From assembly GCA_942493235.1 (NCBI GenBank), contig OW818676.1, forward strand, positions 2,692,001 through 2,756,000: DNA of 64,000 bases. Reading direction: 5' to 3'. Origin of the DNA: an uncultured bacterium. GTDB lineage: Bacteria; Bacteroidota; Ignavibacteria; Kapaibacteriales; UBA2268. The notes beneath the pieces were generated by a model. That model searched no databases. It was not told where the DNA came from and was given only the letters and a program-made list of their open reading frames with translations. Every line of letters begins with the position of its first letter. Position 1 is the first letter of the stretch. Positions 3,935 to 62,445 of this stretch are shown piece by piece. Position numbers and translations under genes: made by a program.

Positions 3935-3944
3935 CCTATTAAAA

Positions 3945-16627: not shown

Positions 16628-18667
<2,040 letters not shown>

Positions 18668-31306: not shown

Positions 31307-31325
31307 GATTTGGCTATATTATTTG

Positions 31326-33310: not shown

Positions 33311-33524
33311 TTTATTCTCCGGTCTTTCTCAAATAGAAAAAATAAAATTAAGTAATTTAGAATTAAAAACCAAATCTTAAATCATTTTCTACTTGAAATA
33401 ATATTTTTAATTCCAATTATTGATATTAGACCCGTCGATTTGTATTGCCCCAAATTAAGCCACACTCCGACTTTGAAGAATTATTACTAAAGATTAACAA
33501 TCGGTTTATAGGTTCTTCGCTATT

Positions 33525-33810: not shown

Positions 33811-33993
33811 CTCATTTATCTCTGTAGTTTCTTCAATGGGCTTATTTGAAAATTTTGCAATTAATAGTGTCCATTTCGGACAAAGGGTACCAGGTGTTTC
33901 GCTCAAAGGGTACCACTATAGCCAACCAAAAATTCAATACAAAAATAATAAATTCTTACCTCTTGTAGCATCTTTTTTTCTTATATTTTCTTT

Positions 33994-34704: not shown

Positions 34705-34831
34705 TTTTAATTTCCTATTGTAATTGATTTATGCTTTAAATAATATTTATTGTAATTGTATTATCATTGTCGAATATTTAATTTTTTCGCGAGATATAAG
34801 TGTTTATATACTATGTACTTTGTAAATATCC

Positions 34832-36382
34832 TCATATCTTACCGTAATATTGTGCTCCTCTTATATTTTCATGATTCGGGGTTTGATATTCAATTTCATC
34901 TTCTAATGATATTTTATCATAATTGCTTGCCAAAATGTTTTTTATAGTCCTATAGTTATAACTGTTGAACTGTATCGCTCTGTTGCAGGCTCGGTTCAAT
35001 CGCTCGTAACCAACTTTCTTTCCATAACTTAATATGCCGATACAGGACTTATAAGCCTGTTCGGGATGCTTCTTAGAACTGAGTACTTCATTGATTACTG
35101 TTTCAGTTTCTGCTCCAATTGCTCTTGCCCAAGTAATGAACTTCTCAGGGCTCCATTGGCTGACAAATTGATGAGTGCTCGGTAAATGTTCGGCATTAGT
35201 CGTATATTGATATTTTCCGTAATTCCTTTGGTGATATGCGATTCGCTCTCCTTTGCAATAGATGGATAAGGCAGAGTTTGTGTATTGTATTTTCACTTTC
35301 TGCCCTATATAGCTGTAAGGAATACTATAATAATGCTCATCAACTCCGAACCATATATGAGAGTTTTTATAAACTGTTGCCTGAGAGTATCTCTTTATTT
35401 CATAGTTGATTATAGGTAATTCTTGTAGTTCTTGCTCTTCTATTTCTGTAAATAGTTCTCGTCGGCTATAGTCTTTATTTTGAAATTTAGTGTTGTTATG
35501 AATATCTAATTTTTCTAATATTCTTGTGTTTAAATCTTGAATCGAGAAAAATTGTTCATTTCTGAGTGTAGCAAATACTCTTGTATAGCTTATGTTAACT
35601 GCACTTTCTACCAATGCTTTATCTCTTGGCTTGTAACTCCTTGTCGGTAATATTGTTGTGTTATAGTGCTCAGAAAAATCAGCAAATATCATGTTTAACT
35701 CTGCTTCATATTTGCTTGCTTTAGTTACTGCGGCTTTTAAATTGTCGGGAACTATTGCCAATGGTACACCACCAAAATAGCGGAGGGCATTCTCTACTGC
35801 TTTAATAAAATGCTCTGTTTTCTGGCTCGGGACTGCCTCTATATAGGTTAATTGGCTTGCTCCTAATATTGCTATAAATACTTCAACTTCAATTACTTCC
35901 GATGTCGCTTTATTTACATACTGTAACTTCTTACCTGTAAAATCCACATACATTTTGTCGCCGGATTTGTGCTCTAAGTGCATTGTTACTTCATTGGCTT
36001 TTAACCAATTTTTATAATGTTGGCAATATTGTGTGTAATTATATCCATCTGGATGCCTGATTTTATACTCTGACCACAATAACTGCTTTGTTACTCCCGT
36101 TCGCTTTAACTCCTTTTCTATTTCGGGGCATTGCTCTAATAATATTTGAAAGCGGTCTTTACTTGGTAATTCTTGATTTCTCATCAGTATTTCAAGCTCT
36201 CCTTCACTCTTTTGCTTGATTGTGTCGTAATCTATACCTATTGATTTATATAGCAATACGTATTTTGTTACGCATTTTCGGGATATGCCTAATAGCATGC
36301 ATATTTCACGATAGCTTTTACCATCATTATGAAGTTTAATGATTTGTTTGATATTGTACATTTCTAAACCTTTGTTTGCCAT
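34832..36382 (-). CDS. istA: IS21-family transposase IstA
   Basis: N-terminal HTH, DDE integrase core (YVDFTGKKL ... AIVPDNLKAAV), 516 aa. Confidence 0.9.
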   Translation of the reverse strand: MANKGLEMYNIKQIIKLHNDGKSYREICMLLGISRKCVTKYVLLYKSIGIDYDTIKQKSEGELEILMRNQELPSKDRFQILLEQCPEIEKELKRTGVTKQLLWSEYKIRHPDGYNYTQYCQHYKNWLKANEVTMHLEHKSGDKMYVDFTGKKLQYVNKATSEVIEVEVFIAILGASQLTYIEAVPSQKTEHFIKAVENALRYFGGVPLAIVPDNLKAAVTKASKYEAELNMIFADFSEHYNTTILPTRSYKPRDKALVESAVNISYTRVFATLRNEQFFSIQDLNTRILEKLDIHNNTKFQNKDYSRRELFTEIEEQELQELPIINYEIKRYSQATVYKNSHIWFGVDEHYYSIPYSYIGQKVKIQYTNSALSIYCKGERIAYHQRNYGKYQYTTNAEHLPSTHQFVSQWSPEKFITWARAIGAETETVINEVLSSKKHPEQAYKSCIGILSYGKKVGYERLNRACNRAIQFNSYNYRTIKNILASNYDKISLEDEIEYQTPNHENIRGAQYYGKI

Positions 36383-36468
36383 TTACTGCTCAATTATTAG
36401 TTGCAAAACTAATTATCTTCACAGCTAAATAAATTCCAATTATTTATTCTTTTGGCTGGCTTAGAAGT

Positions 36469-36582
36469 GGTAACCTTTCACCGAAATGAATGGTAACCTT
36501 TCACCGAAATGGGTGGTAACCTTTCACCGAAATGGGTGGTAACCTTTCACCGAAATGGGTGGTAACCTTTGAGCGAAATATC
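36469..36582. repeat. five tandem 23-bp direct repeats (ggtaacctttcaccgaaatgggt) at the istA-proximal IS21 terminus
   Basis: Units start at 36469, 36492, 36515, 36538 and 36561. The last unit is degenerate (ggtaacctttgagcgaaatatc). Two inverted copies lie at the other terminus (33869-33916). Confidence 0.8.
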
Positions 36583-45290: not shown

Positions 45291-45533
45291 CTGCCAAATA
45301 ACGCTGAAGCATGGGGTTGAATAAATAAGGTCTATAATTTGCCAATAGCTTTTAATATTTACACAGCCAATAAATCCACGATTCGATATCAATTAGATTT
45401 TTCAAATAGCTAATGAAAAAAATTAAGTTTACTGCAAAAGTCCAAAATATTCATTTACTATTAATTTTTCAAAGGTTTCAAGCTACTAAGTGCATATCAA
45501 GAGGTTGTATATAAAGTAACAATATTGTTAATT

Positions 45534-45613
45534 CGTTATTCTGAGCGAAACGAAGAATCCAGAATTATCAACATTTAGCTTTATCTGGATTCTTCACTGC
45601 GTTCAGAATGACT
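45534..45613. repeat. long-stem hairpin repeat, copy B
   Basis: cgttattctgagcgaaacgaagaatccaga-attatcaacatttagctttatc-tctggattcttcactgcgttcagaatgact. Its loop is identical to that of copy C. Confidence 0.65.
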
Positions 45614-45751
45614 ACTTTTTAGTCAGCCTCTTGAATAAATGGAAATTGAAAATTAGATAGTTTTGCAACAGACTTAAATTACACAAAAAAGTAGAATACG
45701 AAATTTTAAGATTGCGTATTCTACTTTATAATAATCGAGAAACATTAAGGC

Positions 45752-47990: not shown

Positions 47991-49028
47991 TCAAAAATAT
48001 TTCTTTTTAAAAAATAAAGCTACATTTACTAAAGCAATTAATGCAGGCACTTCAACTAATGGACCAATTACTGCTGTAAAAGCTTCACCAGAATTTATTC
48101 CGAATACAGAAATCGCTACTGCTATAGCCAGTTCAAAATTATTGCTTGCTGCTGTAAATGATAAAGTAGCAGTTTTGGCATATCCGGCGTTTGATTTCTT
48201 GCCCATATAGAAAGATACCAAAAACATAATTATAAAGTAAATCAAAAGCGGAATAGCAATTCTAATCACATCAAGCGGAATATTTATAATTACATTTCCT
48301 TTTAATGAGAACATTACTATTATTGTAAATAATAATGCGATTAGAGTAATCGGGCTGATTTTCGGAATGAATACACCATGATACCACTCTTTGCCTTTTA
48401 ATCTAACTAAAATCAATCGAGTTAAAAATCCGGCTATAAATGGTATTCCCAAATATACAAATACAGATTCAAAAATTTGCCCCATAGTTATGTCAACTGT
48501 AAAGGTCTGTAAGCCAAAATATTTTGGTAAAACAGTAATAAAGAAATACGCATAAACCGAGAAGAAAAGCACTTGGAATATTGAATTAAATGCTACTAAT
48601 CCTGCGGCATATTCTGTATCACCTTTTGCCAGATCATTCCAAACAATCACCATTGCAATACATCTGGCTAATCCTATTAAAATCAAGCCTGTCATATATT
48701 CGGGATAATCCTGTAGAAATACTACTGCGAGAATAAACATCAGTACCGGACCAATTATCCAGTTCTGAACTAATGATATTACAAGCACTTTAGTATTTTT
48801 AAATACATCGCCAAGTTCTTCATACTTGACTTTTGCAAGCGGCGGATACATCATCAGAATAAGCCCTACTGCAAGTGGAATATTTGTAGTACCTGAACTG
48901 AACTGATTCCAGAAGTCGGAAATATTCGGAAAGAAGTATCCCCATGATACTCCAATAGCCATAGCGAGAAATATCCATAGAGTTAAGTATCTATCCAAAA
49001 AGCTTAGTTTTTTTGTAATTTTTTCCAT
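47991..49028 (-). CDS. acr3: arsenite efflux transporter, ACR3 family
   Basis: 345 aa, 10 TM, N-terminal [20 protein letters not shown] typical of ACR3. Confidence 0.88.
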
Positions 49029-49143
49029 TATTTTTTATTTTAATAGTGATAAAATAAGTATGAAATATTTGATTAATCACCAATATCAACTTCTCTTAGT
49101 CCTTTGTATCAGGGTTGTCCCCAAAGTTATATTTAAGTCAAAT

Positions 49144-49222
49144 CGTCATTCTGAGTGCAACGAAAAATCCGGAATTATCAACATTTAGCTTTATCCGGAT
49201 TTTTGCTTCGTTCCTAATGACA
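49144..49222. repeat. long-stem hairpin repeat, copy C
   Basis: cgtcattctgagtgcaacgaaaaatccgga-attatcaacatttagctttatc-ccggatttttgcttcgttcctaatgac. Shows the compensatory atccaga/tctggat to atccgga/tccggat change relative to copy B. Confidence 0.65.
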
Positions 49223-49288
49223 AATTTGGCAAAGCACTGTTTAAATGGGTTAAGCATTTGAACAGTGTACTAATTCAACAATATTATC

Positions 49289-50095
49289 TTATTTATATGC
49301 TTTTACAGTTACACTTAAAATATCAGCCCCATTTGTTTTGAAATCTAAAATTTCTTCATCAGAGAGATAAGCCTTGAGTATAATTTCAGGTATATCAATT
49401 TTCTTTGATTTTAATATTTCAATATTCTTAAATCCGTTTTCTGAAATAACTTTCAAATAATCTTCTTTTTGTAAAGCTCCGGCAACACAGCCGGCGTACA
49501 TTTCTGCGGCATTTGCAATATTTGGAGGCAATTGCCCGGATAATACAATATCAGAAACACAGAAATGAGCATTATTTTTGAGCACTCTATAGATTTCACT
49601 AAATGCTTTGTTTTTATCCGGTACTAAATTCAGAACACAATTACTAATGATTACGTCAACGCTATCTGATTTCACAGGTATATCTTCAATATCACCTTTT
49701 ACAAATTCTACATTTGTATAACCGAGCATTTTGCAATTTTCTTTTGCTTTGTTAAGCATCTCTTCAGTAAAGTCTAAGCCAATCACCTTACCTAATCTAC
49801 CGGTTTCTCTGCGAGCTATGAATACATCATTGCCGGCACCGGAGCCGAGGTCTAATACCGTATCGCCCTGCTTAATTGCTGCAAATTCAGTTGGCATACC
49901 ACAGCCCAGTCCTAAATCTGCCTCGGAGTAATATCCGTCAACTTTAGCATAGTCGTCGCTCATTATATTATAATTTGTCGGCTTAGCTGTTCCTGTACCG
50001 CAACATGAGCATCCGCAGTTTTGATTTGATTTCGCTATCTCTGCATATTTTTCATTTACTGTTTTTTTAATTTCTTCATTGGTATTCATTTTCAT
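49289..50095 (-). CDS. arsM: arsenite S-adenosylmethionine methyltransferase
   Basis: N-terminal CGCSCCG cysteine cluster, SAM-binding VLDLGSGAGND, downstream conserved Cys. 268 aa. Confidence 0.85.
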   Translation of the reverse strand: MKMNTNEEIKKTVNEKYAEIAKSNQNCGCSCCGTGTAKPTNYNIMSDDYAKVDGYYSEADLGLGCGMPTEFAAIKQGDTVLDLGSGAGNDVFIARRETGRLGKVIGLDFTEEMLNKAKENCKMLGYTNVEFVKGDIEDIPVKSDSVDVIISNCVLNLVPDKNKAFSEIYRVLKNNAHFCVSDIVLSGQLPPNIANAAEMYAGCVAGALQKEDYLKVISENGFKNIEILKSKKIDIPEIILKAYLSDEEILDFKTNGADILSVTVKAYK

Positions 50096-50174
50096 TTCCT
50101 TAATCTTTATTATTAATATTATTATTTATTATAATTAAAATGTATTATTTTAAATATTTATCGTTTTTTACTAT

Positions 50175-50462
50175 TATGTGTAAGTACGCAAATAAATTAA
50201 TCTTTCTTACAACGGCGTTAGCTGTTGAACATCGGTAATAAATATTATTTAGTTCCCATACTCTTTCTTCTCTTTTTGTTGTTAAAACAAGAAAGTGTTG
50301 GTGGAGTATCTCATTATATTACTGATGCTTAACTCCTACCGGAGTTAAAATTTAAAATCAAAGATATTAATCCAATAAGATATCAAAAATCAATATTTGA
50401 TATATAAGGATTTTCTTTATACTTATAACAATTATTTGCTAACCCACTTAAAATAGCGAAGA
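50175..50462. repeat. ~290-bp intergenic repeat, copy 2
   Basis: See copy 1. Lies between arsC and arsM. Confidence 0.7.
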
Positions 50463-50503
50463 CCCATATTTATTATTATATTAAAATGTATTTTTATAGA
50501 TAT

Positions 50504-50926
50504 TTATTTTTTTAAAATATTATTATTATAAAATATTGTAAAATCTCTTTTGATTTCATCTCTTACTCGTCTGAATTCAGATAATATTTCTGTTTCAGTT
50601 CCTTTTGCTTCTGCGGGGTCATCAAATCCTATATGTAATCTATTTGATACTTTACCTGTAAATACAGGGCATACTTCTTTAGCATGGTCGCAGACAGTAA
50701 TTACATAATCGAACTCATGGTCTAAGAATTTATCAACCATTTTCGGGTAGTTCGAGCTGATGTCTATCCCGATTTCTGCCATTACTTTGATAGCTTTAGA
50801 GCTGACTTTTTCTGCCGGATTAGTTCCGGCGGAATAAACTTCAATACTGCTATCCAATGACTTGACTATTCCTTCTGCCATCTGAGAACGGCATGAATTA
50901 CCAGTGCATAGTATTAGTATTTTCAT
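50504..50926 (-). CDS. arsC: arsenate reductase, low-molecular-weight phosphatase family
   Basis: ILILCTGNSCRSQMAEG P-loop, 140 aa. Confidence 0.85.
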   Translation of the reverse strand: MKILILCTGNSCRSQMAEGIVKSLDSSIEVYSAGTNPAEKVSSKAIKVMAEIGIDISSNYPKMVDKFLDHEFDYVITVCDHAKEVCPVFTGKVSNRLHIGFDDPAEAKGTETEILSEFRRVRDEIKRDFTIFYNNNILKK

Positions 50927-50944
50927 TTTTTCCTTATTAAATAA

Positions 50945-51289
50945 TTAAACATTGCAATTATTATTTCTATTGATTTTATCAATTTTCGATAAATCCTCTA
51001 TTACTTGCTCATCGCTATTAAGCCACATCTGAAGCATAAGTAATGTTTGTTGAATTTTAGTATCGGTCGTTTCCATATTGATAGAATAGAATACCCACTT
51101 CCCCACTTTAGAATCAAGTAAAAAACCGGCTTCTTTTAATATTGATAAATGATTAGAAACAGTTGACGGCGATAAATCAAGATTATCTGTTATTTCGCAT
51201 ACACACAGTGTTTTACGAAGCAACATCATAATTATTCTTAACCTATTTTTGTCTGATAAGCAGTTGAATATTTTTATTGTATCTTTCAT
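50945..51289 (-). CDS. arsR: ArsR-family metalloregulator
   Basis: Winged HTH with CVCEITD metal-binding motif and SNHLSILKEAGF. Confidence 0.8.
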   Translation of the reverse strand: MKDTIKIFNCLSDKNRLRIIMMLLRKTLCVCEITDNLDLSPSTVSNHLSILKEAGFLLDSKVGKWVFYSINMETTDTKIQQTLLMLQMWLNSDEQVIEDLSKIDKINRNNNCNV

Positions 51290-51482
51290 ATATTGTCCAA
51301 TATCTTCTAATAATATCTAATAATTCTATATTGTCATTTCGTCGTACATCGAAATTATAAAAATTATTATTTATTTGCAAATTATTTTTTTCTTATTGCA
51401 AAAATAATTATTTATTTCTTTGAGAATTGTCGAAATTGTTAATATTTAGCGGTTATAAAACTATAAATGGTTCTTTGATATT

Positions 51483-51769
51483 ATGTGTGGATAAGCAAAT
51501 AAAGAAATCTTTCTTACAACAGCGTTAGCTGTTGAACATCGGTAATAAATATTGTTTAGTTCCCACACTCTTTCTTCTCTTTTTGTTACTAAAACAAGAA
51601 AGTACTGGTGGAGTTTCTCATTATGTTACCGATGTTTAAATCCTACCGGAGTTAAAATTTAAAATCAAAGATGTTTATCTAATAAGATATCAAAAATCAA
51701 TATTTGATATATAAGGATTTTCTTTATACTAATAACAATTACTTACTAACCCACTTTAAATAGCGAAGA
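51483..51769. repeat. ~290-bp intergenic repeat, copy 3
   Basis: See copy 1. Nearly identical to copy 2. Lies between arsR and the first serpin gene. Confidence 0.7.
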
Positions 51770-51964
51770 CTCGAAATATTATTGTTAACCATAATTCTTT
51801 TTTCTCAGTGCTAATGCGTGTGATTCAATGGAGAGGTCCGGCATTTGTACTAAAACAGTAGTTTTTACACCACCTTATGTAGAGCTAGAATTAAAAAAAA
51901 ATAAGCTTAAAAAAAACAATGTTTCAATTAAGCTTATTTCGTTCTTTCTCAACATGTTCTGTAT

Positions 51965-53170
51965 TTACAATTTATTAATTCTTCCCAGAAATAGAATCGA
52001 ATTACTTGTATTTTCTCTCAATACTATAATAAATGGTCTATTTGTATTGAAATAGAAACTGTTATTTGTATTTTTTCGGAAGTCAATCAGTGTAACAGCT
52101 GCTGCAGTAGTACCTACCTCATCAACATCCATAAATGTTTTATGAATAATATTGTCAATTGATAATAATTCTGACTTAGTAATTTTAGAAAAATCAGCAT
52201 TTTCAAATGGCACATTCATACCTAACCGCTTTAATATTTTCTTTAATTCAATTGTGAACTCAATTTTAAATTTCGGAATTTTAATTATGGCTTCTTTTTC
52301 TCGCATATTTTGAATTATTGCATTGTATTTTTCAACTGACATTTGATTAATATATTGATTAACATTATTATATTCATTCGGTAATATAATTGTCATTGAG
52401 TAATTGCCGCTTCCATATTTAAGGTCTATAGCTTTGATTTGCTCATCTGAATAGCAATTGATTGCCGAATCAGCCAAATACATCATATCTACTTGAGATT
52501 TCACTCCAGAGAAATTGGTAAATTCAGCTTTGGCTGTTTTTTCTTTATCAAATTGCTTAACCCAGTCTGCTTTGAAATATATAGCATTTACTAAAAATAA
52601 TACGGAATTCGGTTTAATTCGCTCTAATATTTTCTCGATTTTGCCATTTGTTTTATCCTTAACCCAATTATTTAATTCGATTAACGTAGCAGGGTCTGAG
52701 AAATCTCTTGTAAAGGATTCTGCTGAAAAATATTTACTTAAAATATTCTGATAATTGGTTTCAACTTGCAAGGTAGGTATATTCCAGATTGAATTTGCCG
52801 AACTCAATTTTACTTTAGAATCGGAACTAATTAATAATTTAATTAGCTTGGAATAATCCTCATTATAATCACCGATTGAGATATTATTTAGATTGAGAAC
52901 GCTTTTAATCTCGTCGGCTGTAGCACCATTTGCCCCATTATAAGCCATTGATAAAGCTATATTTATGCTTAAAGGTGAAATCAGGTAATTAGTATCGGCA
53001 CCACACTCAATTAACTTGAAAATGTTCATACCGGTTTGGTTAGATGAATTTGCCATAGACAATTGGTTTGCTGTCGGGGGCTCAATCACCTCAGCGATAA
53101 TTGTATTATCTGCTTTGCAAGAAATTAAAATCAGTAATGTGAAACAAGCTAAAATTTTCAAATACTTCAT
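51965..53170 (-). CDS. serpin-family lipoprotein (miropin-like serine protease inhibitor), paralog 1
   Basis: Lipoprotein signal (LILISCKAD). Serpin hinge EVGTTAAAVT and C-terminal NRPFIIVLRENTSNSILFLGRINKL serpin signature. 401 aa. Confidence 0.85.
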   Translation of the reverse strand: MKYLKILACFTLLILISCKADNTIIAEVIEPPTANQLSMANSSNQTGMNIFKLIECGADTNYLISPLSINIALSMAYNGANGATADEIKSVLNLNNISIGDYNEDYSKLIKLLISSDSKVKLSSANSIWNIPTLQVETNYQNILSKYFSAESFTRDFSDPATLIELNNWVKDKTNGKIEKILERIKPNSVLFLVNAIYFKADWVKQFDKEKTAKAEFTNFSGVKSQVDMMYLADSAINCYSDEQIKAIDLKYGSGNYSMTIILPNEYNNVNQYINQMSVEKYNAIIQNMREKEAIIKIPKFKIEFTIELKKILKRLGMNVPFENADFSKITKSELLSIDNIIHKTFMDVDEVGTTAAAVTLIDFRKNTNNSFYFNTNRPFIIVLRENTSNSILFLGRINKL

Positions 53171-53231
53171 AATGCACCTAAATTATTTAAAATAAATATT
53201 ATCAATAATATCGTTTTTCGATAATCCTGAT

Positions 53232-54455
53232 TTACAGCTTATTAATTCTTCCCAGAAATAGAATCGAATTACTTGTATTTTCTCTCAATACTATAATAAA
53301 AGGTCTATTTACTCTAATGAAAAAATTATCACTGACAGAAGTATTGTCAAATTGAATTGTAGTTACCGCCGCAGCTGTAGTACCGGCTTCATCAACTTCC
53401 ATAAATGTTTTATGTAAAATCTTACTTATAAAAATATCAAATGAATTAGTTATTTTTGAAAAATCAGCTGATTCTGAAAATGCGACTTTCATACCTAAAC
53501 TATATAATAAACTTTGAAGCTCAACTAAGTATTCGATTTTAAATTTAGGGAGGTATATTTCGCTTTCTTTAATTTTCATATTGCTGATAATATTATTATA
53601 TTTTTCAACTGTAAGCTCGTTTATATATTCATTAACAGAAGTTTCTTCATTTGGTAAGATGATTGTCATCGAATAATTGCCATTTCCGTATTTCAAATCC
53701 ATTGCTTGAACCTGAGCATCAGTATAGCAGCTAATTGCAGAATCTTTCATATACATCATATCTACTTGTGATTTCGCTCCTGAGAAATTAGTAAATTCAG
53801 CTTTGGCTGTTTTTTCTTTATCAAATTGCTTAACCCAGTCTGCTTTGAAATATATAGCATTGATTAAATACATTACTGCATTTGGGTCCATTTGCTCTAA
53901 TATTTTCTCGATTTTGCCATTTGTTTTATCCTTAACCCAATTATTTAATTCAGTCAATGTAGCAGGGGCTGAGAAATCTTTTGTAAAAGATTCTGCAGAA
54001 AAATACTTATTTAAAATATTCTGATAATTTGCTTCAACCTGCAAGGTAGGGACATTCCAGATTGAATTTGCCGAACTCAATTTTACTTTAGAATCGGAAT
54101 TAATAAGTAATTTAATTAGCTTAGAATAATCCTCATTATAATCACCGATTGCAATATTATTTAGATTGAGAACGCTTTTAATCTCGTCGGCTGTAGTACC
54201 GCTTGCCCCATTATAAGCCATCGATAAAGCAATATTTATGCTTAAAGGCGAAATCAGGTAATTAGTCTCGGAATCTTCATTTATCAATTTGAAGATATTA
54301 ATACCCGTTTGATTAGAAGAATTCGCAATAGACAATTGGTTTGCCGTCGGGGGCTCTACCACCTGTGTAACAACATTATTATCATCTTTGCACGAAATTA
54401 GAATCAGCAAAAAGAAACAAGTTAAAATGTTTAATTTTTTCATAATACACCTCAT
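53232..54455 (-). CDS. serpin-family lipoprotein, paralog 2. Probable start is MKKLNIL at 54443
   Basis: Highly similar to paralog 1 over most of its length. Same hinge and C-terminal signature, but a different reactive-centre loop (TIQFDNTSVSDNFFIRV versus LIDFRKNTNNSFYFNT). Confidence 0.85.
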   Translation of the reverse strand: MRCIMKKLNILTCFFLLILISCKDDNNVVTQVVEPPTANQLSIANSSNQTGINIFKLINEDSETNYLISPLSINIALSMAYNGASGTTADEIKSVLNLNNIAIGDYNEDYSKLIKLLINSDSKVKLSSANSIWNVPTLQVEANYQNILNKYFSAESFTKDFSAPATLTELNNWVKDKTNGKIEKILEQMDPNAVMYLINAIYFKADWVKQFDKEKTAKAEFTNFSGAKSQVDMMYMKDSAISCYTDAQVQAMDLKYGNGNYSMTIILPNEETSVNEYINELTVEKYNNIISNMKIKESEIYLPKFKIEYLVELQSLLYSLGMKVAFSESADFSKITNSFDIFISKILHKTFMEVDEAGTTAAAVTTIQFDNTSVSDNFFIRVNRPFIIVLRENTSNSILFLGRINKL

Positions 54456-54702
54456 ATATAGTAAAAAAAAATATCTATCAATAATATCGTTTTAAAATTG
54501 CAAAGGTTACAATTTATTACAATTTATTTTTCTTTATTGAATCTTTTTCAATATTATTGAGCGTCTTAATTTGAATTGATTTAGTTAAAAATACAATTAT
54601 GAATCCTTTTAATAATTAAAATATTACAATTCTTAACCGTCTCTATAATAATTGAAAATCGTAGTAGCTTATACATTAACTTATAATATTATTTTTTAGA
54701 AC

Positions 54703-57018
54703 ATGAAAATTAGAATAAAGTATTTAAAATTTTTGATATTTATATTTCTTATAACTACATATAGCAATATTTCCTCTAAAGAAATTACCGGTAATGTAAT
54801 TGGTAAAGACGGAGCAAACTTAGAATTTGTTCAAATAAAAATCAAAGAATTACAGAAACAGGCACAAACTAATATAAATGGTGAATTCAAATTCGAGAAT
54901 ATTGATGAATCTGCTTATTTATTTGAATTTTCGAGAGTAGGTGTTATTAAATTAGATACTTTGTTAAATACACGTACAACTAATAATTTCATAATCATCC
55001 TTGATAACGAAGCTACTAAGTGTGATAATATAATTATAACCGGCACTCGAACTGAAAAAGATATTAAATCGTCGCCAATACTTACACAAGTGTATTCATG
55101 TTCAGAAATACAGTCACATTCGGCGACTAATCTTAGTGAATTATTAGCTGCCTCTGCTTCTATGCAATTAATTAACAGCCATGGCAAAGGCATTCAGATG
55201 CAAGGCTTAGACCCGGCTTATACTGCTATTATGTTAGATGGTAATCCCTTGATTGGCAGAGAGGGCGGTACTCTGGACTTAGACCGAATCAATCTGAGCA
55301 ATATAAAACGCATCGAAATTATAAAAGGTGCAGTATCATCATTATATGGTTCTACTGCATTAGCCGGAGTAATAAATTTGATTTCTGACGAGCCGCAGTC
55401 GATACTTTCAACTAATACCTCAATTAAATACGAACAGAATAATACATTTAATGTAAGCTCTAATGTATCAAGCAAATTGCTTGATAATAAATTCAAAAAC
55501 AGCTTTGGTATAGATTACTCATATTGCGACGGATTTACAAATAATGATCTAAATTTAGGACTAATTGTACCAATATCTCATAATTTAACTCTTCAAGATA
55601 ATATCAAATATAATTTTAATGATGGTTTGATAGCTGGTATGTTTTTCAGATATAATTATTTATTGCAAGAAAATTCATATACTTCAATTATAAATGGGGT
55701 AAGCAATAAACTTGATGATAAAGGCAGCTTAGACGACTTAATGTATTCGGCTTCTATAGAAAAATCATTCGAGAAAATTGATTTCAATATAAAGTATAAT
55801 TATTCCGATTATAAGACAAAGTTGCAATATTTCTTCGCAGATACCGATGAATTAGAGTCTCAGGATATATTTCATCAATTCCTTCATAAAGTAGAATTAG
55901 TTTCTAATATTAAATATATTAAAGATATTAACTTTACTTATGGTATTGGGCTTGAATATGAAAAGGTAAATGCAGACAGAATCGAAATGAACTCAGACAA
56001 TACCCGCCTGCTATTTAGCTTTCTCCAAGCTGATTACAATGTAAATGATGATTTGAACATGATACTATCTGCCCGCTTTGATAAGCACAATGATTACCAA
56101 GAAAAGTTAAGTCCGAAATTTGCATTTTCTTATTCCGTATTTAATGACTTCTATATCAAGGCTTCTGTAGGAGCAGGGTTTAAAGCTCCGAGCTTCCAGC
56201 AATTATATATGAACTGGAACAATCCTCAAGTTGGCTATAGTGTATTTGGTTCTGCTTATTATGATCAAGGGCTAAAAAAACTCTTTGACCAAGGGCTTAT
56301 TATTCCCGAATCAATAACTTCTCAGACTGTTAAAAAACTAATGCCTGAATCATCAATTTCATATAATATTGGGTTTAATTTCAATTGGGAAATAATTGGT
56401 GTAAAAGCAAATGTTTTTCGCAACAATTTGACTGATATGATAGATGTAATCCCTGTAGCTCAAAAAACCAACAGTCAACAAGTATTTACTTACTTTAATC
56501 TCAATAAAGTTCATACGCAGGGTATAGAAGCAGATATTGATATTAATCTATATGATAATCTTAACTTATCCCTATCATATCAGTATCTTTCGGCAATTGA
56601 CGATTTAGTAATGGACAAAATTGAAAAAAAAGAAATATTCAAAAATGGTACAAACGGAATTTTCCGTGCTGTAACAAAAAGTGAATACGGAGGTCTATTC
56701 AACCGCTCCCCACATTCAATGAGTGCTAAAGTCGAATACCGTTTTGAAACTATCGGATTGAATGCAATTCTGCAAGGACTTTATAGGTCAAGATATGGAT
56801 ATGAAGATAATAATTCAAATTCAATTTTAGACGATGATTCGGAATATGCCGATGCCTATACACTTTGGGATATTTATTTGAATTATCAACTAAACGATAA
56901 TGTAATAATCAAAGGCGGAATCAAAAATATTTTTGACTATACTAACGAAAAGTTTTTGGTCTATAATGTTGGGTTTAAAGCTTTTATCTCTTGTGCTATT
57001 AAATTTTCTTTATTATAA
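54703..57018 (+). CDS. TonB-dependent outer-membrane receptor with an N-terminal carboxypeptidase-regulatory-like domain
   Basis: Signal peptide. Plug domain (IIITGTRTEKDIKSSPILTQV), 22-strand barrel features. The C-terminus lacks the usual terminal Phe, and the last ~30 codons overlap the next gene. Confidence 0.78.
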   Translation: MKIRIKYLKFLIFIFLITTYSNISSKEITGNVIGKDGANLEFVQIKIKELQKQAQTNINGEFKFENIDESAYLFEFSRVGVIKLDTLLNTRTTNNFIIILDNEATKCDNIIITGTRTEKDIKSSPILTQVYSCSEIQSHSATNLSELLAASASMQLINSHGKGIQMQGLDPAYTAIMLDGNPLIGREGGTLDLDRINLSNIKRIEIIKGAVSSLYGSTALAGVINLISDEPQSILSTNTSIKYEQNNTFNVSSNVSSKLLDNKFKNSFGIDYSYCDGFTNNDLNLGLIVPISHNLTLQDNIKYNFNDGLIAGMFFRYNYLLQENSYTSIINGVSNKLDDKGSLDDLMYSASIEKSFEKIDFNIKYNYSDYKTKLQYFFADTDELESQDIFHQFLHKVELVSNIKYIKDINFTYGIGLEYEKVNADRIEMNSDNTRLLFSFLQADYNVNDDLNMILSARFDKHNDYQEKLSPKFAFSYSVFNDFYIKASVGAGFKAPSFQQLYMNWNNPQVGYSVFGSAYYDQGLKKLFDQGLIIPESITSQTVKKLMPESSISYNIGFNFNWEIIGVKANVFRNNLTDMIDVIPVAQKTNSQQVFTYFNLNKVHTQGIEADIDINLYDNLNLSLSYQYLSAIDDLVMDKIEKKEIFKNGTNGIFRAVTKSEYGGLFNRSPHSMSAKVEYRFETIGLNAILQGLYRSRYGYEDNNSNSILDDDSEYADAYTLWDIYLNYQLNDNVIIKGGIKNIFDYTNEKFLVYNVGFKAFISCAIKFSLL

Positions 57019-57034
57019 ATTGAAAGGTTTTACT

Positions 57035-57658
57035 ATGAAAAAATTATTCTTTATGTTCTCTATTATGATTTCAGTAATCGCACTTTACTCCTGCTCAGAC
57101 GACGACAGTGTTACAGAAGCTATTGACCGCAGTAAACAAATTACTCCTGATACTGTGCTCAATTTCAAAACATACTATACAGGAACTGCAGATACAATTA
57201 CTTATTTTAGTTTACGCGAAAATATGAAAATTGACAGTTCAGATGTTAATACAGACAAATGGGATATTGCTTTTAATCGTACTAACATTTTTGTTAACTG
57301 TGGCTATCGCGGTCTGGCTCAAGGTGGAGCATTTCTTTTGAAGAATATAGATTTCTGGTCTGTAACAGAAGTCCCAGCCGACAGTACTTTTTATATTGAA
57401 TCCGAAGCCACAAAAGCTATTCCTACTTCCGGCTATGGATGGTATTCTTATGATTTCGACAAAACTGAAATAAAAGCTATACCCGGCAGAGTATTAATTA
57501 TTCGCACAGCCAACGGTAATTATGCAAAAGTTCAAATCTTAGGCTATTATAAAGGCTTTCCAGATAGTATTCCGGATGATGTTAACAATAGAGAAGAAAG
57601 ATATTATTCCTTTAGATATTCTTATCAACCTAACGGAACAAAAAGTTTTCTCAAGTAA
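57035..57658 (+). CDS. HmuY-like lipoprotein
   Basis: Lipoprotein signal (ALYSCSDDD). TDKWDIAFNR resembles the HmuY family. Position immediately downstream of a TonB receptor matches the hmuY-hmuR arrangement. RBS gaaagg. The ORF-track start at 56933 is upstream read-through. Confidence 0.4.
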   Translation: MKKLFFMFSIMISVIALYSCSDDDSVTEAIDRSKQITPDTVLNFKTYYTGTADTITYFSLRENMKIDSSDVNTDKWDIAFNRTNIFVNCGYRGLAQGGAFLLKNIDFWSVTEVPADSTFYIESEATKAIPTSGYGWYSYDFDKTEIKAIPGRVLIIRTANGNYAKVQILGYYKGFPDSIPDDVNNREERYYSFRYSYQPNGTKSFLK

Positions 57659-57775
57659 CATATCCTAATTAGGTTATATGATTGTTACTTGCTGAGTTTA
57701 CTTAATACATATAAAGTCCAATAGAATTAACAATTTTATTGGACTTTAAATTTAATAAGAACCTTATAAATAGAA

Positions 57776-57842
57776 AAAAGCTTGCAATTTAGTTTTGAAG
57801 AGCGAGGCTAAGTAGCAAGCTTTTTGTTTTTTGACGAACAAC
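57776..57842. terminator. bidirectional terminator between convergent genes
   Basis: aaaagcttgc ... gcaagctttt 10-bp stem followed by tttttgtttttt, and A-rich on the other side. A second perfect 11-bp hairpin (aaagtccaata/tattggacttt) lies at 57708-57742. Confidence 0.5.
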
Positions 57843-57969
57843 AACTTTTCAGTTGTGAAGAGAAAGATATTTCATTAGCTATATAAAATAGTATTTATTA
57901 ATCTCAGTTATCAACATATCTAAAGCCAAGAGTTGATAATAAACGTATCATTTCAAATACAAAATGATA

Positions 57970-59184
57970 TTATAATTGCTGAAGCATTTTTTTTGCTCTC
58001 GGAGCATATTGGCTTTTAGGATAATTAGTTAAAAATGACTGAAAAGCATCTTTAGCTGAATCAACTTTACCCATTCTAATAAAGGATTCACCTATCATAA
58101 TGCGAGCTTCAGCATTTTTAGGTGAACCATTATCATTAGCCGTTTTGTAGAAAAATTTAATAGCTTCAGAATAATTAGTTAATCTAAAATAGGACTCCCC
58201 TAACCAATAATTACAGTTAGAAAGTGTTTGATTATCATTAGATTTAGTCATAATTGTATTTAATTCGTTGATAGCTTTGTGATAATCTTTTTTAGCAAAA
58301 TAATCCAAAGCAGATTTAACGGAATTATTTAAGTCATTAGGAATATTTGTATTTGTTTGTACAGGTTTAGTTTCAATTTTTGTAGCAGCTTTGAAATTAT
58401 TAGGTTCCGCTTTTTTAGTGTTATTTGGTTTAATTTCAGACTTTTTATCAATTGATTTTTGAATATGGTTCAAATCATTATTGGTAGGTTTTACTTTTTT
58501 AGTTACCGGTTTAGTAATTTTCTTAGTATTATTTTTTGCAATTGGTTTAGCAGAAACATTTTTTTTACTTATCTTCTCGTCAGGTTGAACTACGGAATAA
58601 TCCTCCTCGATTATTTCTTCTTGTAGCTGTTCATCAGTCGGCTCATAATCATAATCATCTTCAGGTTCGATACCTTTTTGAGGAGTTTTTTCGGGTGAAA
58701 ATTTCAGAATAGTGATAGCATCTTTTATATCATCAATAGAGTTTTTAATTTCATTTACATCTGTTTGTAAAGTATTAACTTGCGTTTTTATTGATTCTTG
58801 GTCTTGAGCAAGCAAATTCATTTGCTCTCTGAGAGTAGGCAGTCTTTTAGCTGTAATGTCGATTGCGGACTGTGTGCTGTTAGATATGCTTTCGTCTTCA
58901 AAATCATCGGAATTAGAATTGGCTTTATTTAGTAAAGCTTTATTCGTCAATATTTTCTCCTCAAATTGAGAAATATTTCCGCTTACGGTATCAATTTTTT
59001 CGTAATTTTTTTTGCTTTTTTCTGCTTTAGAAATGCCTTGATAATTCTTAGATTTCACACTTCGCATATTTGAGCAGCCCGAAAAGGCGAATATCATACA
59101 AACGGCGGCGAATATTGCACAATAGAAGTATAATATTCTGTTTAATTTTTTCTCAATATTTGTAAGTCTATGTAACATAAGCAT
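57970..59184 (-). CDS. membrane-anchored coiled-coil / TPR protein, YbgF(CpoB)-like C-terminus
   Basis: N-terminal TM, Lys/Pro-rich linker, C-terminal TPR motifs (YWLGESYFRLTNYSEAIKFFY ... TNYPKSQYAPRA). Confidence 0.55.
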   Translation of the reverse strand: MLMLHRLTNIEKKLNRILYFYCAIFAAVCMIFAFSGCSNMRSVKSKNYQGISKAEKSKKNYEKIDTVSGNISQFEEKILTNKALLNKANSNSDDFEDESISNSTQSAIDITAKRLPTLREQMNLLAQDQESIKTQVNTLQTDVNEIKNSIDDIKDAITILKFSPEKTPQKGIEPEDDYDYEPTDEQLQEEIIEEDYSVVQPDEKISKKNVSAKPIAKNNTKKITKPVTKKVKPTNNDLNHIQKSIDKKSEIKPNNTKKAEPNNFKAATKIETKPVQTNTNIPNDLNNSVKSALDYFAKKDYHKAINELNTIMTKSNDNQTLSNCNYWLGESYFRLTNYSEAIKFFYKTANDNGSPKNAEARIMIGESFIRMGKVDSAKDAFQSFLTNYPKSQYAPRAKKMLQQL

Positions 59185-59295
59185 CTCCGAATATATTTAT
59201 TATATAATTATCTAATTCGTAAGTATATAATTCAATGATTGTGCCAATTAGATAGCATGAGGTTAAATATGATGGATTTTGATTAGAATGAGCTA

Positions 59296-62200
59296 CTATT
59301 TATCTTTAAATTTTAATTCAACTCGTCTGTTTTTTTGTCTTCCGGCTTCATTTTTGTTTTCTGCAATCGGATAGAGCGAACCTTTACCATTAGATAATAA
59401 ACGATTTTTATCGACACCTTTACTTGCTAAATATGTTCTAACTTCATTAGCACGGGTTTCTGAGACTTTTTGATGTTCTTCGGTACTACCAAATACATCG
59501 GTATGCCCCTCTATATAAAGTTTAATTTTAGGATTTGCAATCATATATGCAGCAATAATATTTAAGTAAGATTTTGAACCAGGGGATAAGTATGTAACTT
59601 TAGAGCCGGAATATCGAATTGCCTTTAAATTGTCAGGATTAGTCAATTCAGACGCTTGTGAATTAGCTAATTCAATTGGTTTGTTAGTATTCGGATTGAT
59701 AATTGTGTTAGCAGGAAGTTGTTCAGTTATAAGTGGTTGTTCAACAATATTAGGAGTAATATTTGTTTCGGAGATTGAATTTTTCAATACTTCACCTGCT
59801 ATTGTTTCATGAGTATCGTTAGTAGTATTCGATTTCAATAAAAAGTCTAAATTACTAATATAATCACCTTCGGTAGAAATACTTACATCAAATTCTAAGA
59901 ATTTAGGCTCGCTTTGACAATTCAACAAATTTAACTGAACTGAATCGACATAAGCTACATATTTATCAGGGATTAATTTATTAGCATAGAATGTACCGTC
60001 AGAGAACACTGGAACAATTTTTTTATCATCAATATTGTTTTTACTGACAATATGAATTTTAACTCCACTTTGCCCTTCTTTATTATTTTTTGAATCAAAA
60101 CGATAGACTGTTCCCTCTGCCATTCCAGACATATAGCATGGAATATCAATATTTTTAATTGAATTCGGGTCTGCAATAAATGCGAATTGAGATACTTTAG
60201 GTAATATATTCGGATTTTTGAAAGAATTATTTTTAACATATAGATTATATCTTCCGCCGGGTAGTAAATTCAAAACACGTTTTAGCCCCTTTTGGTCTCT
60301 TTCTATTGTAGCTCCCGGTACATATACGGAGCCATCTTCAATCTCTTCATCTGATTCATCAAATACTGCATTTGAGTTTCTGTCTATATAGAATCTAATA
60401 CTTGCACCGCCCGAACTTGACGAGCTAAATCCACCGCTATTACTAAGAAAGAGCTTGCCTTTGTTTGAATCAAACCTTAATGAACCACTAATATTTTCGG
60501 AATATGAATTATCTGAGCCTTGAGCGGACTGCATTGAAGAATTCATTCTGAAAATCGAAGTATTAACCATAGCAGACAAATTCAGAGAAAACATTTTTGA
60601 CTCTACTATATATTGACTTGAAATATTAAAATTAATAAGTCTTGCAATTTCTTGACTTATAGCAAAGCCAATTGAAGGAATTTTTTTTGTTTCAAATATA
60701 TAGCTGGAGTTAACTGACAATCTGGTATTACCCATAAATGATAGAAAAGAAGGCTTATCGTACCAACTATAATCAATTTGATAAAATAAATTCTGATTAA
60801 ATCTGTTTTCTGAATTTATTTTATCATAATTATTTGTAATTCCATATCTCGTAGAAATATAAAATTTTTGCAAATTAAATGCTAAGCTGAGATTGCCGCC
60901 ATTTGTAGCTGCATTATCGGTTTCAAGTCTATTTGCTCTGAAAGATATATTTACCGGCAAATTGAATAATCTCGGAAAGCCCCCCGATATATCATAGCTA
61001 CGGCTGGCTTTAGTATTATATTGTCCTTGATTATTATAAGAGTAAACGAAATCATAAGCTCCCATATTATCAAAAAATACTCTGATACCGGCTTTATAGA
61101 AATTATCCGGAGAAATTGAAGTATTCAGCAATACACTATTTAGAAGTCTTATTGAAGAATTATCTATGATGCTATAGCCTTTAGCTAAATACTCTTTTTC
61201 AAAACTGACTGAGTTAGTTAGCCAATTAGTAATACCGACAGAAACATTTGCACTACCAAAATATTTTTTATTTAGTATCTCTTGACCTGCTCCAATATTA
61301 TATTTGATTTCGCCGGGCACAAGAATTTCGCTTGGTACTGAGATAATATCTTTTTTGCTGACAAACTCTCCGTGAGGACCATAGATTCTGATTTCAGTAT
61401 TGGTATTGCCATATTTAATAGGTAAGTCAAATCTATAATAACCAAGATTATCAGACCGAGTCTGAGAATATAATTTGTCTGCTACATACAGCTCAACCTG
61501 CCAATCAGGTTCTATTTTATCTTCAATAATAAATGTAGTAAAAGCAGTGGGCATTTTAATTGATTCATTAGATATCTGAATGCCGAGCAAATTCCTACTT
61601 GATAGGTTTGAGTTAATTATTGAATTTCCTCTTGACTGACTATTGTTGATGCTTCCTAATGCAATTTGAGAAATGATATTATTCTCAGTAAAACTATATC
61701 GCCACCTATAATTATCATTTCTTGTGATATTTCTACTCTGATTATCATAATTGGTATTGATATTATATTGTACTTCTCCACCAAGCAACTGAAAACCTAA
61801 ATTTGCACCAAGACCGTAGTTTTGCCTGCTGTTGGACTGTGAACCAGTTAAATAATAATCAAGCATGCCGCCATCAATAAAATTCCAATCTCTACCATAG
61901 AGCAAGGGTAGCTCCGGATTATCAGCATTTTCGTTAAAAGAAAAGTTATTATATTTGTTGCTTCGTTCATCTTCTAATATCAAAGGGAATTTATAGTCGC
62001 TTATAATATAGATTTTCAATTGTTTGGGTTTAACAATTACATTGATATGGAATATCCTTTCAATAACTGATGGCAGTACATATATTTCTAACTCTGTTTT
62101 GACAAATTCTTCGGCATATATATTTGCATATTTTTGACTAATATCTAATATTGATAAATCTTTAGTATTAATTGAAAAACTTGAATCCTTATTAAAGACG

Positions 62201-62445
62201 AATCCTTTTACTTCATTTTTATCAGAAACATCATAATAGACTTTCAGCATGTTCAATAAGTCAAGTAGTGGAATATATACTGAATCTTTATAAATCACAG
62301 TGCTAACATCAATTGAAAAATAGGAATATTTTATAGTAAAAAGCCCCTCTTCGGCTCCTTCGGGCATGTAGTCAAGAGCTTTAAGGTTTATACTTGACAT
62401 ACAAAGTATAATTATAATTACGATATGTGTTAGTATTTGCTTCAA
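59296..62445 (-). CDS. giant OmpA-family outer-membrane protein (1049 aa), TTG start
   Basis: Signal peptide and a long beta-rich N-region. C-terminal OmpA-like domain (YIEGHTDVFGSTEEHQKVSETRANEVRTYL ... NRRVELKF). Confidence 0.75.
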   Translation of the reverse strand: MKQILTHIVIIIILCMSSINLKALDYMPEGAEEGLFTIKYSYFSIDVSTVIYKDSVYIPLLDLLNMLKVYYDVSDKNEVKGFVFNKDSSFSINTKDLSILDISQKYANIYAEEFVKTELEIYVLPSVIERIFHINVIVKPKQLKIYIISDYKFPLILEDERSNKYNNFSFNENADNPELPLLYGRDWNFIDGGMLDYYLTGSQSNSRQNYGLGANLGFQLLGGEVQYNINTNYDNQSRNITRNDNYRWRYSFTENNIISQIALGSINNSQSRGNSIINSNLSSRNLLGIQISNESIKMPTAFTTFIIEDKIEPDWQVELYVADKLYSQTRSDNLGYYRFDLPIKYGNTNTEIRIYGPHGEFVSKKDIISVPSEILVPGEIKYNIGAGQEILNKKYFGSANVSVGITNWLTNSVSFEKEYLAKGYSIIDNSSIRLLNSVLLNTSISPDNFYKAGIRVFFDNMGAYDFVYSYNNQGQYNTKASRSYDISGGFPRLFNLPVNISFRANRLETDNAATNGGNLSLAFNLQKFYISTRYGITNNYDKINSENRFNQNLFYQIDYSWYDKPSFLSFMGNTRLSVNSSYIFETKKIPSIGFAISQEIARLINFNISSQYIVESKMFSLNLSAMVNTSIFRMNSSMQSAQGSDNSYSENISGSLRFDSNKGKLFLSNSGGFSSSSSGGASIRFYIDRNSNAVFDESDEEIEDGSVYVPGATIERDQKGLKRVLNLLPGGRYNLYVKNNSFKNPNILPKVSQFAFIADPNSIKNIDIPCYMSGMAEGTVYRFDSKNNKEGQSGVKIHIVSKNNIDDKKIVPVFSDGTFYANKLIPDKYVAYVDSVQLNLLNCQSEPKFLEFDVSISTEGDYISNLDFLLKSNTTNDTHETIAGEVLKNSISETNITPNIVEQPLITEQLPANTIINPNTNKPIELANSQASELTNPDNLKAIRYSGSKVTYLSPGSKSYLNIIAAYMIANPKIKLYIEGHTDVFGSTEEHQKVSETRANEVRTYLASKGVDKNRLLSNGKGSLYPIAENKNEAGRQKNRRVELKFKDK

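Follow-up and report, generated by a model that had tools for sequence, protein, structure and literature searches.

The physiological role of prokaryotic serpins is still termed enigmatic (PMC8233489), and the only well-studied lipoprotein serpin, miropin, comes from a pathogen. Miropin is encoded by a single gene in the host-associated oral pathogen Tannerella forsythia, carries a lipoprotein signal, and is surface exposed; Lys368-Thr369 are its P2-P1 residues, and the loop bonds used are V367-K368, K368-T369, and T369-S370 (10.1101/2025.09.05.674453). Eubacterium siraeum, a Firmicute, has two serpin paralogs, siropins 1 and 2, which are 60–63% identical overall but only 48% identical in their loops, and which differ measurably in inhibition (PMC5127057). 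In animals, tandem serpin clusters (rodent Serpina1 and Serpina3, SERPINA arrays in snake prey [PMC12646145], and tick arrays [PMC13116602]) show accelerated evolution of the reactive center. Here we analyze a 64-kb stretch of DNA from an uncultured bacterium (contig OW818676.1, positions 2,692,001–2,756,000; hereafter the window, with coordinates counted from its first nucleotide), which contains two adjacent serpin genes that we call A and B. We think it likely that these are tandemly duplicated inhibitory lipoprotein serpins of the miropin type (like miropin, members of bacterial serpin group T of PMC8233489) that present two different baits, that have undergone partial gene conversion, and that are independent of a neighboring receptor operon.

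The two paralogous open reading frames (ORFs) named in the original prediction, which had been made from the sequence alone, lie next to each other on the minus strand. Serpin A, the downstream copy, has 401 amino acids (aa; 51965–53170) and serpin B, the upstream copy, has 403 aa (53232–54443); we found no further serpins in the window. The mechanical ORF of serpin B extends from 53232 to 54455 (407 aa), but the start at 54443 (MKKLNIL) is most likely correct, because the database gene call (P0002) has 403 aa and because the ATG and a 46-nucleotide (nt) leader align with those of copy A. Both proteins match the Pfam Serpin model (PF00079) over its full length, A with 338 bits (E = 9e-101; residues 42–400 on model positions 2–369 of 370) and B with 350 bits (E = 3e-104; cutoff 27). 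They are 76% identical to each other, with two one-residue gaps. The closest solved structure is miropin (5ncs, E = 2e-70, 34–38% identity; also 5nct, 5ncu, and 5ncw), in keeping with the predicted likeness. Structure modeling covered copy A, for which AlphaFold2 with an 18-sequence alignment gave a mean predicted local distance difference test score (pLDDT) of 83 and a predicted template modeling (TM) score of 0.83; low confidence was limited to the signal peptide and to residues 366–377 (pLDDT < 50), which are modeled as flexible. A Foldseek search of the PDB with this model returned 415 matches at E ≤ 0.001, the top 50 listed being serpins without exception, and superposition on cleaved miropin gave a root-mean-square deviation of 1.2–1.5 Å and a TM score of 0.94–0.95. 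The model of A thus has the serpin fold of three sheets and about nine helices.

Both serpins begin with a lipoprotein signal of the form M-K-x-L-x-I-L-x-C-F-x-L-L-I-L-I-S-C, which consists of a short basic N terminus, a hydrophobic core, and the lipobox L-I-S-C18, and so the lipoprotein signals that had been predicted for them are present. In serpin A, the signal peptide and lipobox cysteine read MKYLKILACFTLLILIS-C18 (53117–53170, minus strand) and the mature N terminus is C-K-A-D-N. In serpin B, they read MKKLNILTCFFLLILIS-C18 (54390–54443, minus strand), and the mature N terminus, C-K-D-D-N, contains a K-(D/E)2 export-like motif. Cys18 is invariant in 18 of 18 aligned homologs, down to 35% identity. 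Export via Sec, lipidation on Cys18, and anchoring in a membrane would be expected to follow, with the outer face of the outer membrane as the probable anchoring site for B and a less certain one for A. The surface-export signal of Bacteroidota lipoproteins is K-(D/E)2 in Capnocytophaga, with an optimum of C-X-K-(D/E)2, and takes the forms SDDDD in B. fragilis and SDDFE in F. johnsoniae (PMC5080379). The mature N termini of two relatives, P0003 (C-K-D-D) and P0004 (C-K-E-T), are akin to that of serpin B. Extrapolating from these other classes within the phylum, we consider display on the cell surface plausible, above all for serpin B and for an HmuY-like protein encoded nearby.

Translation confirmed the reactive-center loop (RCL) sequences that had been quoted for the pair. 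The RCL of serpin A (residues 351–377; 52040–52120, minus strand) reads E(P17)-V-G-T-T-A-A-A-V-T-L-I-D-F(P4)-R(P3)-K(P2)-N(P1)-T(P1')-N-N-S-F-Y-F-N-T-N, and that of serpin B (residues 352–379; 53307–53390, minus strand), aligned with it, reads E(P17)-A-G-T-T-A-A-A-V-T-T-I-Q-F(P4)-D(P3)-N(P2)-T(P1)-S(P1')-V-S-D-N-F-F-I-R-V-N. The hinge, E-[VA]-G-T-T-A-A-A-V-T, has Glu at P17, Gly at P15, Thr at P14 (where the consensus allows Thr or Ser), and small uncharged residues at P12–P9. It matches the inhibitory consensus ExGTEAAA (PMC8233489) and is nearly the same as that of miropin (GTTAAAVT here, GTEAAAVT there). Bulky or charged residues at P12–P9 would have marked a noninhibitory hinge; none is there, P15–P8 being G-T-T-A-A-A-V-T in both copies. 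Nine of the ten hinge residues are identical in A and B despite saturation of the synonymous sites (proportion of synonymous differences, pS, 0.86; proportion of nonsynonymous differences, pN, 0.05), which is evidence that selection, and not recent copying, keeps the two copies competent to inhibit. The segment between P8 and the N-[RK]-P-F motif is 17 residues long in A, 18 in B, and 20 in miropin, the P' side being 2–3 residues shorter in A and B than in miropin; the distance from P17 to P1 is 17 by construction. The corresponding segment of alpha-1-antitrypsin has 16 residues. The loop lengths of A and B, counted from a predicted scissile bond, are within the range of known inhibitors.

Beyond the hinge, the two loops differ. 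No 16-residue window of the A/B alignment is less conserved than the distal RCL, where the two proteins share 3 of 16 residues; by a binomial test, P is 2e-4 relative to the C-terminal block around it and 5e-7 relative to the remainder of the protein. The description of the proteins as highly similar apart from the RCL and some surface segments therefore stands for the RCL, which is the lowest window, but not for its surroundings, because the whole of residues 231–376 is divergent (65% aa identity). In an HMMER alignment, K366 of serpin A aligns with miropin K368, the P2 residue, and Arg at P3 of A resembles by position the engineered RVK-miropin, which gained inhibition of Rgp (10.1101/2025.09.05.674453). 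Serpin B is without the Lys of the miropin loop, but its T-S corresponds by position to T369-S370, that is, to the Thr-Ser at P1-P1' of miropin. Multi-site loop use and surface exposure have been demonstrated for miropin; the resemblance of A and B to its multi-site loop is one of position only. The loops of the nearest relatives read I-K-N-S-S (P0003) and M-K-N-T-S-V-P-D-Y-F (P0004), and of the 17 relatives aligned with B, A among them, 11 have a basic residue at P3 or P2, as does miropin. The loop of B (F-D-N-T-S-V-S-D-N-F) appears to have stayed ancestral apart from a change of Lys to Asp at P3, which reverses the charge, and that of A looks as if, relative to these proteins, it gained an Arg and moved its register by one.

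These distal differences should be of the kind that changes specificity. In the standard serpin suicide mechanism, which A and B would be expected to follow, a protease cuts the exposed loop, an acyl intermediate forms, the loop inserts as strand 4A, and the enzyme is trapped. A and B would combine an identical inhibitory hinge with different baits. Serpin A, with Arg-Lys at P3-P2 (F-R-K-N-T), would trap Arg/Lys-specific enzymes of the trypsin or gingipain type, a prediction that draws on the precedent of miropin's use of neighboring loop bonds. Serpin B (F-D-N-T-S-V), which has no basic loop residue and has the family-typical Thr-Ser at P1-P1', would trap subtilisin-, elastase-, or chymotrypsin-like enzymes. 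Together, the two might shield the envelope from a wider range of proteases, whether the cell's own secreted enzymes or those of competitors.

The divergence between the copies is distributed as a mosaic. We estimated synonymous and nonsynonymous divergence (dS and dN) block by block with the Nei-Gojobori method. Codons 1–60 gave pS 0.52, dS 0.90, and dN/dS 0.21; codons 61–230 gave 0.22, 0.26, and 0.20; and codons 231–350 gave 0.63, 1.40, and 0.20. In the hinge (codons 351–360; pS 0.86, pN = 0.05) and the distal loop (codons 361–376; pS 0.81, pN = 0.48) dS was saturated and dN/dS not computable, and over codons 377–401 the values fell to pS 0.18, dS 0.20, and dN/dS 0 (pN = 0). Amino acid identity follows the same course, from 89% over residues 61–230 to 65% over residues 231–376 (~60–73% at the nucleotide level) and 100% over the last 25 residues. 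The 3'-terminal tract of A (51965–52043, minus strand; repeat family D5), which comprises the last 25 codons and the stop codon, pairs with 53232–53310 of B at ~96% nt identity. The transition is abrupt: 13 of 30 nt match over the loop-coding segment, and then 30 of 30 and 28 of 30 match in the last 60 nt. A dN/dS of ~0.20 in every large block indicates purifying selection on both copies. The mosaic cannot be explained by A alone having evolved faster as a protein, because dS varies five-fold from block to block with dN/dS constant at 0.20.

Comparison with P0003, the closest relative of the pair (70% identical), points to the origin of this pattern. Over residues 61–230, A and B are mutually closest (0.89, versus 0.81 and 0.78 to P0003), but over residues 231–360, B resembles P0003 (0.75) more than it does A (0.65). 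The odd one out is A at 4, B at 9, and P0003 at 24 sites of the core, but A at 23, B at 6, and P0003 at 10 sites of the C-terminal block (Fisher P = 2e-5). The simplest account suggested by these data is that the duplication predates the split from the P0003 lineage and that gene conversion homogenized the 5' two-thirds and the extreme 3' end. The pair would then represent an old duplication in which codons 61–230 and the last 25 codons were homogenized, and in which codons 231–376, including the loop, keep separate histories. The duplicated unit is 1.27 kb long and sharply bounded, by a point 46 nt before the ATG at one end and by the stop codon at the other. The leader of serpin A (53171–53216, minus strand), which has AGGTG 5 nt before the ATG and lies within the 61-nt spacer between B and A, was duplicated along with the gene; it matches its homologous counterpart upstream of B (54444–54489, minus strand) at 25 of 30 and 20 of 30 nt, and similarity ends ~46 nt upstream of the ATG. 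Because the unit includes the leader, each copy keeps its own translation-initiation region. The G+C content of the serpin genes (0.30–0.31) is near the window mean of 0.326.

The receptor and HmuY-like genes that had been predicted beside the serpins are real. The TonB-dependent receptor (771 aa; 54703–57018, plus strand) has a CarboxypepD_reg domain, a Plug domain (PF07715, 66 bits), and a beta-barrel domain (PF00593, 138 bits); its nearest NCBIfam models are those for heme/hemoglobin, B12, and siderophore receptors, all of which it matches below the curated cutoffs. The HmuY-family lipoprotein (207 aa; 57035–57658, plus strand) matches PF14064 with 48.1 bits (cutoff 27), PDB 8b6a with E = 1e-14, and Porphyromonas gingivalis HmuY (3h8t) with E = 4e-9, although its alignment to 3h8t is weak (second stretch E = 27) over the region of the heme-coordinating residues, which are His/His in HmuY and Met in some homologs. 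Its lipobox, ALYS-C, and mature N terminus, C-S-D-D-D, are a good match to the Bacteroides form of the export signal. The gene starts 16 nt past the stop codon of the receptor, and the two probably share an operon. An HmuY-family lipoprotein gene beside that for a TonB-dependent receptor recalls P. gingivalis hmuY-hmuR, but here the order is reversed, with the receptor first, no hmuSTUV-like genes follow, and the receptor falls short of the family cutoffs. A spacer of 259 nt separates the receptor gene from serpin B, and the two are divergently transcribed. A promoter and terminator scan of 51200–57900 was uninformative in this AT-rich DNA (51 promoter-like sites versus 42 ± 6 expected, and 2 terminators versus 2.4); the scan is also ill suited to Bacteroidota promoters. 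As a side observation, the minus strand beyond the HmuY-like gene (57970–62445) encodes a 404-aa protein with a Lys/Glu-rich low-complexity middle and a C-terminal YbgF/CpoB-like tetratricopeptide repeat domain, which comes after a 1049-aa protein with an OmpA-like peptidoglycan-binding domain at its C terminus; together they look like an envelope-tethering pair.

Several points weigh against the reading of A and B as surface inhibitors with two baits and partly converted genes. Inhibition, targets, and scissile bond are predicted for both proteins. The canonical count places Asn at P1 in A and Thr at P1 in B, neither of which is a classic P1 residue, and use of the R-K bond in A is proposed by analogy with the unusual multi-site loop of miropin. 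The AlphaFold2 model of A has its loop inserted (strand 353–363), a state that says nothing about the native one; we rejected it as native-state evidence because it is a modeling bias that reflects the training structures, and it fits a loop able to insert. The argument for gene conversion is built on two genes and on outgroups available as proteins only, and the alternative in which recombination imported a foreign 3' segment into A would yield the same mosaic. It is also possible, if on the whole unlikely, that the loops, as the least constrained part of the protein, came to differ by neutral drift, with copies that are largely redundant (a matter of dosage) or with one copy less constrained. 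The distal loop is likewise the least conserved part among orthologs and distant homologs (conservation is blank there in the 18-sequence alignment), and in about 4 of 13 other tandem pairs the loop does not stand out. Moreover, dN/dS was set aside as a test of positive selection on the loop because it is not computable there; with synonymous sites saturated at pS 0.81–0.86, positive selection cannot be shown. Drift fits less well with the opposite charges at P3 (K in the relatives P0003 and P0004 but D in B), with the added Arg and register shift in A, and with the siropins, whose divergent loops do differ in inhibition. It also has to accommodate the 96% nt identity of the 25 codons immediately 3' of a loop in which 13 of 30 nt match: conversion that reached so near implies that the loop escaped conversion or that converted variants were removed. 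That copy A is instead a degenerating or noninhibitory paralog, its function lost or changed after duplication, we consider very improbable. Its 23 unique differences in the C-terminal block (6 for B), its slightly greater distance from the outgroup P0004 (0.58, versus 0.64 for B), its canonical P1 Asn, and its weaker export motif would fit such a history, but the ORF, the full-length Pfam match, and the hinge are intact, the model is confident, and a dN/dS of 0.20 with saturated dS in the C-terminal block points to age rather than to relaxed constraint.

The location of the serpins and their relation to the receptor bear on the same reading. In serpin B, the K-(D/E)2 of C-K-D-D lies one position before the optimum C-X-K-(D/E)2; in serpin A, C-K-A-D has a single acidic residue and is a weak match; and the genera from which the motif is known, Capnocytophaga, Bacteroides, and Flavobacterium, are outside this lineage. 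These deviations would fit a role of the serpins as periplasm-facing lipoproteins that restrain the cell's own exported or type IX secretion system (T9SS)-bound proteases before secretion. The genome does use type IX secretion (the protein at 1844–3673 has a T9SS sorting domain), and the miropin authors caution that lipoprotein topology is not reliably predictable (10.1101/2025.09.05.674453). We nevertheless regard a periplasmic role as doubtful, given that miropin, the closest characterized relative, is surface exposed and that K-D-D follows directly on the lipidated Cys in B, with similar residues in P0003 and P0004. The suggestion that the serpins, the TonB receptor, and the HmuY-like protein form one functional surface module, in which the serpins protect the hemophore and receptor or tune protease-dependent heme release, has in its favor that the genes are adjacent and have the divergent intergenic region in common, and that all three nonreceptor proteins are predicted lipoproteins with acidic N termini. 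In Porphyromonas, heme acquisition by HmuY depends on gingipain proteolysis, and by analogy a link between protease activity and heme uptake is conceivable. Yet the serpin and receptor genes are on opposite strands and so have no shared transcript, no Fur-box-like site occurs in the window at up to 3 mismatches, and an HmuY homolog lies near a serpin in 0 of 134 loci and a receptor homolog in 2 of 134, by single-sequence phmmer searches (E < 1e-5) that could miss very divergent TonB receptors. In the closest syntenic relative (locus L002, whose serpin is 65% identical over its first 300 aa), the order serpin-arsR-low-molecular-weight (LMW) phosphatase-ACR3 is kept, with CMD and DnaJ-like genes upstream and with no receptor, HmuY, or second serpin; in a further relative (L001, serpin 55% identical), TetR is followed by the serpin, and the receptor and HmuY are absent. 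A joint module, as originally predicted, is thus highly unlikely, and we conclude from gene order that the adjacency is probably coincidental and that the receptor and HmuY-like genes form an independent nutrient-uptake unit. Our preferred account remains that of a duplicated pair of miropin-type inhibitors that stands apart from this unit.

The pair had been described as notable, in part because bacterial serpins were taken to be uncommon. A protein search returned at least 4,244 homolog clusters at E ≤ 1e-20 among 8,000 scored candidates, and a scan of one genome per species gave at least 580 confirmed serpin matches (best identity ~40% among the matches listed) that span Bacteroidota, Ignavibacteriota, Calditrichota, Gemmatimonadota, Poribacteria, Zixibacteria, cyanobacteria, and others. 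Close relatives of the pair are scarce: only P0003, P0004, P0005, and P0006 exceed 50% identity among 5.8 billion clusters, and a collection of metagenome contigs held no serpin above 41% identity to it. A lipobox was present in 58 of 97 near-full-length serpin ORFs of the sampled loci (~60%, by a crude lipobox test). Tandem serpins (2–5 genes) were found in 16 of 129 sampled loci (~12%), namely in 11 of 82 (80 obtained in the genome scan, together with L001 and L002) and in 5 of 47 metagenome loci. In about 9 of 13 scorable tandem pairs, 7–8 of 8 hinge residues agree and the distal loop ranks with the least conserved windows. The largest arrays that we saw are a run of five serpin genes on one strand, of which one is split or frameshifted, in a metagenome-assembled genome (MAG) of Prolixibacteraceae (L026, 4908–11215) and three consecutive serpins on a 4.9-kb metagenome contig (L085, 1–4222); the RCLs within these arrays all differ. 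In the literature, we found no paper that describes bacterial tandem serpin arrays as such.

With these arrays, and with the siropins as an earlier case of paralogs in one bacterium with loops far less similar than the rest (PMC5127057), neither serpins nor tandem pairs with divergent loops can be called rare in bacteria. The pair is a real but fairly ordinary arrangement, plainly a common one, with biochemical and evolutionary precedent. The precedents are not exact. One siropin is predicted to be intracellular and the other secreted, neither is a lipoprotein, a tandem arrangement is not stated, and the authors credit horizontal transfer and not duplication with conversion (PMC5127057). Like A and B, the animal clusters are tandemly duplicated, combine a conserved scaffold and hinge with a hypervariable distal loop, and show signs of homogenization in the flanking sequence, but they are eukaryotic, multi-exon, and secreted, they often comprise many more copies, and positive selection on their loops has been shown statistically, whereas in A and B the synonymous sites are saturated. 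Miropin itself is a single gene of a pathogen, as against two tandem copies in a genome of a different kind. The one mildly new observation is the conversion-like mosaic divergence with a protected loop.

The original prediction also placed the locus in a setting that faces host proteases. The window contains gyrB (16652–18667), and the closest named homologs of its product, at 72–73% identity, are from MAGs of Ignavibacteria, Kapabacteria, and unclassified Bacteroidota; GyrB proteins from further contigs are up to 80–88% identical. This places the genome among Ignavibacteria/Kapabacteria-type MAGs and not in a known host-associated genus, and because the lineage is not Tannerella-like in this respect, host proteases are an unlikely target. 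Nor did our scan support a position of the serpins inside a repeat-bounded accessory region, as had been supposed, because all of the repeat copies that we found are at or below 51780, on one side of the serpins, with none beyond them.

Directly downstream of serpin A is an arsenic-resistance cluster (47991–51289, minus strand) that consists, by Pfam, of arsR, an LMW-phosphatase-type arsC, a gene for an ArsM-like methyltransferase, and ACR3. Its counterpart in L002 (4860–6858) is without the methyltransferase and adds an ArsP permease. The single serpin of that locus (3495–4706) was called as two genes (300 aa and 56 aa), which tblastn aligns end to end; it is either a pseudogene or the product of a long-read assembly error. 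A noncoding element of ~300 nt is present in three plus-strand copies (33511–33813, 50152–50463, and 51440–51780; the first two 87–90% identical to the third by BLAST), and it has 27-nt imperfect terminal inverted repeats (33516–33542 and 33783–33809, 85% complementary) and an internal 28-nt inverted repeat. The terminal inverted repeats make it similar to miniature inverted-repeat transposable elements. Two copies bracket the arsR-arsC pair and the remaining one adjoins an IS21 element. A search of the whole window against Rfam gave no matches, and so the repeat is not a known RNA family; the element was absent from all fetched loci, the ars cluster of L002 among them. The IS21-family transposase (34832–36382, minus strand; NF033546, E = 3e-67) lies within 33994–36581, with a 236-aa ORF downstream (33994–34704), and the flank at 36467–36581 contains four overlapping register copies (step 23 nt) of the tandem 23-nt unit GTGGTAACCTTTCACCGAAATGG. 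The ends of IS21 elements typically bear multiple terminal repeats of this kind. Palindromic intergenic repeats of ~90–100 nt (31221–31323, 45503–45618, and 49113–49204), which are 70–83% alike and occur in both orientations, carry the motif …GTCATTCTGAG…GAATCCAGA…TCTGGATTC…CAGAATGAC… and sit after convergent or terminal gene ends; they may be elements similar to repetitive extragenic palindromes, or terminators. Apparent paralogous gene clusters at the two ends of the window (ORFs of 165, 275, and ~403 aa at both ends) were rejected, because panB and tyrS at one end are paired with unrelated proteins at the other.

Because both the inhibitory mechanism and the mode of evolution are already known from other serpins, current understanding is little changed by this locus. 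A broader proposal, which we put forward as speculation and consider rather unlikely, is that tandem arrays in bacteria are a widespread strategy that mirrors the mammalian SERPINA clusters, in which conversion keeps the scaffold uniform, the loop and the adjacent sheet-A/C segment are protected, and a repertoire of surface traps is maintained against the proteases of competitors; A and B would be a young and clear example. If this were true, serpins across domains of life would have converged on a general rule, that of evolving in concert while a hypervariable loop is protected, and environmental bacteria of the Fibrobacteres-Chlorobi-Bacteroidetes (FCB) group would use surface serpins in interbacterial protease warfare and not against hosts. 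The frequency of lipoprotein serpins and of tandem arrays in environmental Bacteroidota, Ignavibacteria, Gemmatimonadota, Poribacteria, and cyanobacteria makes defense against host proteases unlikely as the main role of these proteins. As a matched natural pair, with one scaffold, an identical inhibitory hinge, and different loops, and with Arg-Lys in A where miropin has Val-Lys, A and B would be convenient for asking how loop sequence sets the specificity of a bacterial serpin.

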